64,000 bases of DNA from an uncultured Verrucomicrobiae bacterium (lineage in GTDB: Bacteria > Verrucomicrobiota > Verrucomicrobiia > Palsa-1439): positions 179,678 through 243,677 of the forward strand of contig CAWEWF010000010.1 of the NCBI GenBank assembly GCA_963812605.1. Direction: 5' to 3'. The translations under genes and the position numbers were made by a program. The notes under the pieces are model-generated. The model had not been told where the DNA came from. It saw only the letters and a program-made list of their open reading frames with translations, and made no database searches. The stretch's first letter is position 1. Each line of letters begins with the position of its first letter. Positions 53,132 through 54,545 of this stretch are shown piece after piece.

Positions 53132-53285
53132 CGAAGTGTCAACCTTTTTTCATAATCCCGGCACAAAATCAAGCGGCGAGTGATTCAGCAGGAGTTGCCA
53201 AAGGGTTTTTCAACGGCAAAGCCCATTTTTTCATCCCTCCCAGCGGGACGAACCCTTCCGCTTTTCCGTTGGAGCAACTGTCTTT

Positions 53286-54227
53286 TCATAAGGGTTGGAA
53301 AGTAGGTTCTTGGAGCAGGCGATTGAGTAAGATGATGAGTTTGCGCATGACGGCGACCAGGGCGACTTTGGGGGCCTTGCCCTTGGCCACCAAGCGTTGA
53401 TAGAAGGGCTGCAATTGCGGGTGGCGAAAGGCCGCCACCAGAGCCGACATGTACAAGGCCCGCCGGGCGGCGGGCCGTCCTCCGCCGATTTGTCGGCGTC
53501 CCCGATGCGGACCACTGTCGCGATTGAAGGGAGCCACACCCGCCAGCGCCGCGGCCTGGCGCCGATTCAGCGTGCCCAATTCCGGCAGCAGCGCCAACAG
53601 CACGACGGCCGTCAGGCGTCCCACGCCGACCACCGAACAGAGTCGGGCGACTTTCTGCGCCAGCGCGGGCTCGGCTTGGACCAAGGCGGCGATCCACGCG
53701 GCGAGCTGTTCCAGGTGTCGATCCAGTTGGCTGAGGTGGCGCTGGATTTGCCGGCGGGCGTCGGGGTGGGTGAGATGCTCCAAGCGGTTGTGCTCGGCCA
53801 CGCGCAGCGCCAGGACTTGTTGGCGACGGGTGACCAACTCCGCCAGTTGACTCTGGGCGGCGCTCAACGCGGCGGTGCCGGCCGGGCGTACGGCGGCGCC
53901 GTAAGCCGCCAGCACGGCGGCATCCAGTTGGTCAGTCTTGGCCAGCCGACCGGTGGCGCGGGCGAAGTCGCGCACGTGACGCGCGTTGACTACCGAAACC
54001 ACTACACCGGCCGCGTGCAGGGCGGCCACGACGGCGCGTTCATAGCCGCCTGTGGCTTCGCCGATGACGTGCACGGATCCCAGAGCTTGCAGCCAACGCA
54101 CCAAGGCGCGGTGGCCCTGAGGGTGGTTGGGAAACTGACGGAACTGCGCGCGGGATCCGCTGGCGGCGTGCAGATCCAGGGTGAGTTTGGCGACATCCAT
54201 TCCGACGTAGACGATCGATGGCAACAT
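53286..54227 (-). CDS. IS110 family transposase/recombinase (313 aa)
   Basis: GMDVAK, EATGGYE and KTDQLDA (DEDD); [10 protein letters not shown] serine motif; RRALYM; VAVMRKL; SD AGGAGGAG. Confidence 0.95.
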
Positions 54228-54235
54228 GGTTAGAC

Positions 54236-54457
54236 TCCTCCTTGCAATGCGAGTGGTGGTGGCGCGGATGGGCGCGACCGCCGCTCTGGCAACTGTTCGA
54301 GCGTACCGACAGGCAACGCGGATGGATCCAGCTCCAAACGGACAGGTCTGAACCGAACCGAGGGCCACGACGATCACTTCCGCGCGCCCTTGGGGGGCAT
54401 GCCCCCCAAGGGCCATCCTGTCGCTCCCACACCGGTGGGAAACCAAGCCAGAGAGTA
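54236..54457 (-). ncRNA. Predicted bridge RNA in the IS110 left non-coding end
   Basis: Segments match target (CGTGGCCCT; TTGGAG) and donor (ACAGTTGC; TGCAAG) in the expected order; 5' hairpins; boundaries approximate. Confidence 0.8.
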
Positions 54458-54475
54458 CCAAAAATTCTAGATACA

Positions 54476-54545
54476 AGGGCCACGCTCCGTCGTGGCCGTC
54501 CGGGATCGCTGACGACAGCGGACGCGACGGAGCGCGTCCCTCCGA
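54476..54545. repeat. Inverted REP-like pair (GGAG class), first copy interrupted by the IS110
   Basis: AGGGCCACGCTCCGTCGTGGCC ... GGACGCGACGGAGCGCGTCCCTCC. Confidence 0.85.

Follow-up and report, generated by a model that had tools for sequence, protein, structure and literature searches.

The 64,000-nucleotide stretch of DNA analyzed here, referred to as the window, belongs to an uncultured Verrucomicrobiae bacterium (GenBank assembly GCA_963812605.1, contig CAWEWF010000010.1, positions 179,678 to 243,677 of the forward strand) and carries an insertion sequence (IS) of the IS110 family on its minus strand. We put the probability at roughly 0.9 that this element is a working-design, IS621-like bridge-RNA insertion sequence aimed at a repetitive extragenic palindromic (REP) hairpin of its host. 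An earlier inspection of the letters and open reading frames (ORFs), hereafter the sequence-only reading, had placed the ends of the element, a 248-nt left end, a 313-aa ORF, four guide segments, a palindrome, and promoter-like hexamers, and the coordinates of all of these were confirmed. The element and its immediate surroundings are laid out as follows:

53273-54477, minus: IS110 element; the range spans both 2-nt CT cores, and the element with one core measures 1203 bp
54478-54497, minus: REP hairpin GGCCACG-ACGGAG-CGTGGCC with a 7-bp stem, the 3' arm of which (54484-54478) is the left target half
54484-54478, minus: CGTGGCC, the end of the left flank ...GAGCGTGGCC, directly before the left CT core
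54476-54477, minus: left copy of the CT core, followed by TGTATCTAGAAT; empty sites hold CT once
54228-54475, minus: non-coding left end of 248 nt, predicted to encode the bridge RNA
53286-54227, minus: recombinase ORF, 313 aa, with a DEDD RuvC-like domain and a Tnp domain with a conserved serine
53275-53285, minus: right end of 11 nt, GACAGTTG, up to 53275
53281-53275, minus: ACAGTTG, the last 7 nt of the right end, which form the left donor half
53273-53274, minus: right copy of the CT core, followed by CCAACGG
53269-53272, minus: CCAA, right half of the target

The assignment of the 313-aa protein to the IS110-family recombinases was corroborated at three levels: (i) its Pfam matches were PF01548 (1.7e-24; N-terminal DEDD RuvC-like domain) and PF02371 (4.5e-15; C-terminal Tnp domain), (ii) the NCBIfam equivalog model NF033542 'IS110 family RNA-guided transposase' scored 204.3 bits against a cut-off of 140, and (iii) the PDB chains of IS621 (E 4e-40) and ISCro4 (9t56; E 3.1e-39, residues 5-300) were matched. 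Residues D11, E57, D99, D102, and S238 were invariant in seven orthologs and, in the HMMER alignment, stood opposite the IS621 motif residues that form the DEDD/Ser active site according to Hiraizumi et al. 2024 (PMC11208158), with S238, located within NRDSG, aligned with the serine of the IS621 motif YESGS. Judged from its sequence, the protein thus appears to combine what defines the group, namely a DEDD domain with four acidic residues, a Tnp domain with the presumed catalytic serine, and a hit to the curated model. The sequence-only reading had also called it compact; it is indeed shorter than the PDB chains of IS621 (328 aa) and ISCro4 (341 aa), but the difference is modest.

The ends of the element could be fixed by comparing its copies within the host genome, which was searched as 15 contigs (4.17 Mb). 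Four full copies and a truncated one were found at different loci. They were 97-100% identical, and the recombinase ORF was intact in three of the five (window copy included), frameshifted in one, and truncated in one. This search for further copies had been proposed in the sequence-only reading, and it showed all five copies to lie directly 3' of the same REP hairpin with the same left target: the left flank was GACGGAGCGTGGCC-CT in every case, while the four copies with a right end continued into CT-CCAA, CT-CCAG, CT-CCAA, and CT-CCGA. The dinucleotide CT was the only sequence common to the two junctions, both in the window copy and in the other genome copies. A search for the 22-nt hairpin plus core with up to three substitutions returned 18 REP-hairpin sites, five of them occupied and 13 empty. 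All 13 empty sites read ...CGTGGCC-CT-CC.. with CT present once, and one of them (C14:338537) nearly copies both flanks of the insertion in C8. Since the junctions share CT and the occupied and empty sites agree, the pre-insertion target CGTGGCC-CT-CCAA, the CT core, and the donor junction ACAGTTG-CT-TGTAT reconstructed earlier are correct. The element is therefore inserted site-specifically at a short core that donor and target have in common, without any other duplication, and its long left end and short right end (248 versus 11 nt) correspond to the layout given for the IS110 group (PMC11208160 or PMC11208158). The claim that REP units are targeted likewise held, though 'GGAG-class REP' is the sequence-only reading's own label.

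The fifth copy (C4:364699-365486, L005) ends after about 800 bp, with a switch to unrelated DNA inside the recombinase gene, and carries extra indels. About 5 kb from the C4 copy lies a distant second IS110-family recombinase gene (C4:305619-306533, L040), 38% identical, in whose locus the RNA covariance model R1 described below found no match. A 152-nt contig of soil run X1 has just the left junction's first 30 nt (54480) in common and then passes into a different flank; it may stem from a further insertion site within the population or from a related element, and is too short to interpret. The REP unit itself is a doublet (54478-54545 and 17 other sites in the genome) in a BIME-like arrangement, its upstream hairpin GGACGCG-CTCCGT-CGCGTCC being an inverted variant of the targeted one.

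To compare the left end across relatives, we collected recombinase matches at E <= 1e-40, which were present in 10 of 61 related genomes, an ortholog set of 42 loci, in which those at least 52% identical were labelled Verrucomicrobiae or Verrucomicrobia metagenome-assembled genomes, and a metagenome set of which 80 loci were kept. Six element types had an alignable left end: type A is the window element, and types B-F are 74-52% identical to it in protein. A covariance model built from a nine-sequence alignment was then searched against 96 further related loci and gave 73 matches at E <= 0.01, of which 54 were long, on the plus strand, and directly 5' of the recombinase gene. The RNA features assigned in the window element are:

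54426-54439, minus: small 5' hairpin CCCAC-CGGT-GTGGG; types B and C have a different hairpin at the same place
54386-54413, minus: perfect 28-nt palindrome forming the 5' stem-loop (helices 1-2), in which two pairs change on both sides
54318-54383, minus: target-binding stem-loop, with a basal stem (54383-54372 with 54328-54318), an internal loop, and an apical stem-loop (54360-54339)
54361-54369, minus: left target guide CGTGGCCCT, identical to left target plus core (9/9) at all five copies
54338-54332, minus: right target guide TTTGGAG, reverse complement of CTCCAAA; the TTGGAG noted earlier (54337-54332) lies within it
54331-54330, minus: CT at the handshake-guide position after the right target guide
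54234-54302, minus: donor-binding stem-loop, with a basal stem (54302-54299 with 54237-54234) and an apical stem-loop (54286-54251)
54288-54296, minus: left donor guide ACAGTTGCC, matching the right end ACAGTTG-CT
54296-54289, minus: ACAGTTGC, the left donor segment as named in the sequence-only reading
54249-54241, minus: right donor guide CATTGCAAG, pairing discontiguously with CTTGTAT; the least secure of the four guides
54246-54241, minus: TGCAAG, the right donor segment as named in the sequence-only reading
54240-54239, minus: GA at the handshake-guide position after the right donor guide

The structure was inferred from these comparative data, the fold of the single sequence being uninformative alone. 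The RNAalifold consensus consisted of the 5' stem-loop and, after it, two further stem-loops. Both target guides lay in the internal loop of the second stem-loop, with GU plus CGUGGCCCU on its 5' side and UUUGGAGCUG on its 3' side, and the donor stem-loop carried ACAGUUGCC and CAUUGCAAG. When a hand-written version of this structure was imposed on the alignment, 97.7% of 346 cells paired, compared with 39-51% when the partners were slid by one to three columns. Nine of the 39 pairs changed on both sides, and none of 500 column shuffles reached the observed covariation score. This covariation was confined to the 5' stem-loop and to the stems of the target loop, where 5 of 11 pairs in helix 3 and 2 of 6 in helix 4 changed on both sides. 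In type F, a different perfect hairpin occupies the position of the palindrome, and the apical stem of the donor loop varies in sequence among copies and types with its pairing kept. The compensatory changes, together with the consensus, bear out that a conserved stem-loop holds the target guides in one of its internal loops, and the combination of a variable first and a conserved second loop fits the published description of bridge RNAs (PMC11208160).

If the internal loop selects the insertion site, its guides should change together with the flanks of the element. The guides and the sites of the types were:

Type A: left guide CGTGGCCCT, right guide (as reverse complement) CTCCAAAC; left 9/9 at 5/5 sites, right 6/8 at 4/4
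Type B: left guide TCCAGCCCT, right guide (as reverse complement) CTACAAAC; flanks ATCCAGCC-CT and CT-ACAAA, 9/9 at two of four left flanks and 5/9 at the other two
Type C: left guide TCCCGCCCT, right guide (as reverse complement) CTACAAAC; 8/9 at both sites
Type E (17 copies): left guide AGTCGCCCT, right guide (as reverse complement) CTACCAAC; on the left, 12 sites with 8/9 and a wobble and five with 7/9; on the right, 8/8 at 12/14
Type F: left guide TTCCAATCT, right guide (as reverse complement) CTGCCGTA; left 8/9 at 4/5, right 7-8/8 at 5/5

Type D (L024) was excluded from the left-target counts because it has no recognisable left boundary within 400 nt. In a cross-table of 35 sites from types A-F, the cognate guide was the best one for all five site types tested. 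Over the 11 non-core positions, the mean fit was 8.5-10.5 for cognate and 1.2-8.5 for non-cognate combinations, the highest non-cognate value stemming from the near-identical guides of types B and C. The same relation was sought independently in the 54 metagenome loci by calling the ends from the donor motifs alone and only then comparing guides with flanks. Right-target identity amounted to 129 of 172 non-core positions (0.75, versus 0.31 after permutation), while left-target identity was 109/147 (0.74 versus 0.44); in neither case did any of 2000 permutations reach the observed value. The right-target test drops 23 of the 54 loci, in which the right end was not found, the contig was short, or the guide columns did not start with the core, and the left-target test drops 32, in which a CTTGTAT-like boundary was missing within 140 nt or the guide did not end in CT. 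The match between target guides and insertion site, noticed earlier in the window copy, is thus borne out by covariation in types B, C, E, and F and in the metagenome loci.

The sites of the clade also resemble each other in structure. A perfect stem of at least 6 bp ending within 2 nt of the core was present at 29 of 47 clade sites versus 175 of 5000 random positions of the host genome; at two of the five occupied sites of the host genome, the stem is imperfect. At most clade sites the left target half is the 3' arm of the hairpin, the sequence of which differs by host. In the host genome itself, all five insertions fall in the hairpin class, and a separate site search counted about 16 hairpin sites and about five other sites with CGTGGCCCTCC. 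On these numbers, a need for REP context beyond the 13-nt target was not significant (about 0.2, hand calculation).

The guides of the donor side were compared with the ends of the element. A right end matching the element's own left donor guide was found just after the stop codon in 41 of the 54 loci, in a search that tolerated one substitution in 9 nt and for which we estimated by hand a chance of about 0.01 per locus. Nine distinct left-donor heptamers were recovered, each identical to its own right end, which substantiates the left donor guide of the sequence-only reading; the right one stands with the reservation that it pairs imperfectly. In the latter, CAAG pairs with CTTG and is followed, in 39 of 46 distinct RNA tails, by G or A facing T; the other seven comprise one with C and six lacking the xCAAG motif. 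Bases at the positions of the handshake guides, a published feature of the IS621 bridge RNA (PMC11208158), were consistent with such a role: the right target guide (AG) is followed by an invariant C, complementary to the G that precedes the donor core, and in 31 of 34 distinct RNAs the base following the right donor guide complements position 7 of the left target guide, although the variation here is small (29 C:G, 2 T:A, and three exceptions).

In one metagenome relative (L093:1647-1690), the first approximately 9 nt of the left end stand twice in tandem after the right end ...ACAGTTG-CT, each copy starting with CT, and a flank that fits the right target guide at 6/8 positions comes next. These tandem copies may be the footprint of an abortive or half-site recombination or an assembly artefact.

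By homology with IS621, the element would excise as a circle, its left end would be transcribed into the bridge RNA, and a tetramer of the 313-aa DEDD/Ser recombinase would use this RNA to recombine donor and target at the CT core. Sequence comparison shows that the first loop of the RNA (CGTGGCCCT and TTTGGAG) pairs with both strands of CGTGGCC-CT-CCAA at the 3' foot of the REP hairpin, and the second (ACAGTTGCC and CATTGCAAG) with the joined ends ACAGTTG-CT-TGTAT. It also shows that relatives in other Verrucomicrobiae have re-written only the first loop, to fit the repeat hairpins of their own hosts.

The sequence-only reading had further proposed that circularization creates a promoter for this RNA. 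Its two hexamers, and a Shine-Dalgarno-like run in the left end, are:

53284-53289, minus: ATGAAA, -35-like hexamer, 4/6 match, overlapping the stop codon TGA (53288-53286)
54464-54469, minus: TAGAAT, putative -10-like hexamer, 5/6 match, in a region that varies in relatives
54235-54243, minus: Shine-Dalgarno-like run AAGGAGGAG, overlapping the right donor guide, the handshake position, and the 3' strand of the donor basal stem

The hexamers and their spacing were as described, since joining the ends brings ATGAAA to 17 nt from TAGAAT (9/12). The promoter is, on the other hand, a consensus match whose -10 is poorly conserved. A start of transcription at the joined ends is plausible and fits the family pattern, with weak support from these data.

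Several observations weigh against the bridge-RNA interpretation or parts of it. Concerning the promoter, the joined ends score 9/12, while the integrated junction reaches 8/12 with the same -10, and over 15 elements the -10 scores range from 2/6 to 5/6, falling to 2-4/6 outside the window element and its closest metagenome relative. No RNA, circle junction, or excision product was seen, and the assembled contigs of four public runs held no such joints; these runs (three of soil DNA and one metatranscriptome) were available as contigs only and speak neither for nor against circles or empty sites. The metatranscriptome contigs touch only the REP flank and neighbour genes, with 90-99% likeness, and are uninformative on expression. 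As for the RNA, the single-sequence fold has a z-score of -2.2, with 7 of 200 shuffles folding equally well, and its minimum free energy structure pairs parts of the target guides, while the centroid keeps the loop open. An Rfam 15 scan of 52800-55000 at E <= 1 gave no match, meaning either that the library has no bridge-RNA family or that none of its families reaches the left-end RNA. The stems of the donor loop (helices 5-6) are paired but near-invariant, and therefore lack covariation support. RNAalifold, moreover, joins UUGC in the left donor guide to GCAA in the right one; variant sequences break this pairing, which we read as probable self-complementarity of the free RNA, with no conserved stem. 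The right donor guide carries a G-T wobble in the window element and a mismatch in type C. The window copy also lacks one G in the apical stem of the donor loop, after 54253 (minus strand, between CCACCACCA and CTCGC), which is present in the other four genome copies, in all related types, and in contigs of soil runs X1 and X3. This is either a small defect or an assembly error, and the fact that single-base indels in G/C runs also distinguish other copies suggests a long-read assembly error. Finally, the guides fit poorly at some sites, namely B_L034 and B_L023 (5/9) and F_L081 (6/9), and among the metagenome loci L094 (0/7 non-core positions) and L124 (1/7), with L086 and L145 also bad; some of these poor fits probably reflect crude boundary calls.

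Three other explanations were considered. It is highly improbable that the element, although a genuine IS110 member, uses its left-end segments as DNA, i.e., as sub-terminal protein-binding copies of the target and donor halves. This would agree with the lack of an observed transcript and with the strand-neutral identity of segments and flanks, but the segments lie in loops closed by stems with compensatory changes (nine pairs, 97.7% of cells paired), and such pairing reveals a constraint on RNA and not on duplex DNA. Furthermore, the left guides correspond to the top strand and the right guides to the reverse complement, like in the IS621 bridge RNA (PMC11208160), and the protein is homologous to both ISCro4 and IS621, the structure of the latter having been solved with bridge RNA (PMC11208158). 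We also judge it unlikely that the window copy is a crippled passenger with a damaged bridge RNA that moves only with the RNA of a sister copy or not at all. The missing G closes the donor apical stem beside the right donor guide and is found in four copies and six types, and the X1 and X3 contigs carry the extra base after 54253; yet the ORF of the window copy is intact, only one of about seven stem pairs is lost, and the deletion may be an assembly error of the kind seen as homopolymer single-base indels in other copies.

Somewhat less unlikely, yet still not the favored view, is that the bridge RNA originates mainly from the integrated copy, where an internal left-end promoter or read-through would produce it as the leader at the 5' end of the recombinase mRNA; the match at the circle junction would then be a coincidence. 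The junction promoter does exceed its integrated counterpart by only one position with an unchanged -10, the -10 region varies between types, and conservation of the -35-like hexamer could be explained by coding constraint, because it overlaps the stop codon. In addition, the RNA model stops 1-2 nt short of the start codon and includes the Shine-Dalgarno run, from which it follows that bridge RNA and mRNA share a transcript, and weak expression of bridge RNA from integrated IS621 has been reported (PMC13626964). Against this, the minus strand of the integrated copy yielded no sigma-70-like site in a consensus scan, promoters formed at the junction are what has been published for the family (PMC11208160), and ATGA[A/C]A is held at a fixed offset from the core in 12 of the 15 elements scored, where it overlaps the coding sequence.

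The position of the ribosome-binding run led us to a further, tentative idea. The AAGGAGGAG run is invariant in types A-E, and in close relatives 1-2 nt separate the end of the RNA model from the start codon. As this run lies inside the donor-binding loop, it is conceivable, though we would not bet on it, that in this clade bridge RNA and recombinase mRNA are one transcript and that folding of the RNA or binding of the recombinase would stop recombinase translation. If true, this would be a built-in negative feedback coupling guide loading to enzyme dosage. No such feedback is described in the available text of the IS621 papers, and the words ribosome, RBS, Shine, and start codon are absent (0 occurrences) from that of PMC11208160.

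The closest described system is IS621 of Escherichia coli (PMC11208160, PMC11208158), which shares with the window element (i) the DEDD and Ser recombinase, the CT core, and the long left and short right end, (ii) the order of the bridge RNA, i.e., a 5' stem-loop, a variable target loop, and a conserved donor loop (PMC11208160), (iii) a 9-nt left target guide that includes the core, a discontiguous right donor guide, and a REP target (PMC11208160), and (iv) a -35 in the right end and a -10 in the left end (PMC11208160), both putative in the window element. The two differ in that the right target guide fits over 6-8 nt in the window element and its relatives versus 4 in IS621 (PMC11208160), that an extra small hairpin stands 5' of the stem-loop, that the RNA reaches the start codon and contains the ribosome-binding run, and that the recombinase has 313 aa versus a 328-aa chain. 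Moreover, the host is a soil Verrucomicrobiae genome, and the element is known here from sequence alone. ISCro4 (PDB 9t56, from which the name is taken) was compared by protein only, its recombinase being homologous. ISPpu10 of Pseudomonas putida likewise has its target at the base of a GC-rich stem-loop within a repeated intergenic sequence (10.64898/2026.03.19.712850). The IS1111 group has the same recombinase family and RNA-guided logic; it carries its RNA in a long right end and has long inverted repeats (7-17 bp) in sub-terminal position, whereas the RNA of the window element is in the left end. An IS1111/seekRNA-type layout was rejected, as the right end has 11 nt and the donor core is bordered by no inverted pair beyond the 3-bp ACA...TGT. 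Apart from the circle-junction promoter, for which the match is weak, all the defining IS110-group features that can be looked for in the sequence are present, and the differences from IS621 are of degree.

For 85.7% of catalogued IS110 elements, a bridge RNA was predicted by Durrant et al. 2024 (PMC11208160), who also reported family-wide covariation of guides and targets. Given these results and the published IS621-type design, the window element represents a new ortholog and not a new mechanism. A full-text literature search found no paper uniting IS110, words beginning with Verrucomicrobi, and bridge RNA, with the supplementary ortholog lists of PMC11208160 lying outside its scope. The interest of the element is that of a clean natural example of how bridge-RNA elements diversify: in this soil Verrucomicrobiae group, the recombinase (closest relatives 60-78% identical) and the donor loop are constant, while the target loop is re-written for each host. 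Types A-F and about 30 distinct guide/target pairs from metagenomes form a retargeting series of ready-made orthologs, which offers right target guides of 6-8 nt and a slightly shorter, GC-rich recombinase as candidates for genome-engineering tools, and which could be used to ask whether the target hairpin adds specificity. For annotation of this genome, the element accounts for five repeat copies and for repeats that break contigs, and through it the REP family can be flagged as a hot-spot of insertion.

The element occupies the divergent intergenic region between two genes (53132-54635). The neighbour on the minus strand (51821-53131) is a fused gene, the product of which, judged by its N-terminal sequence, resembles a sugar-phosphate isomerase/aldolase fusion. 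The neighbour on the plus strand (54636-55925) is similar to transporters of the MFS type, and a sigma-70-like site for it is located at 54582-54610.

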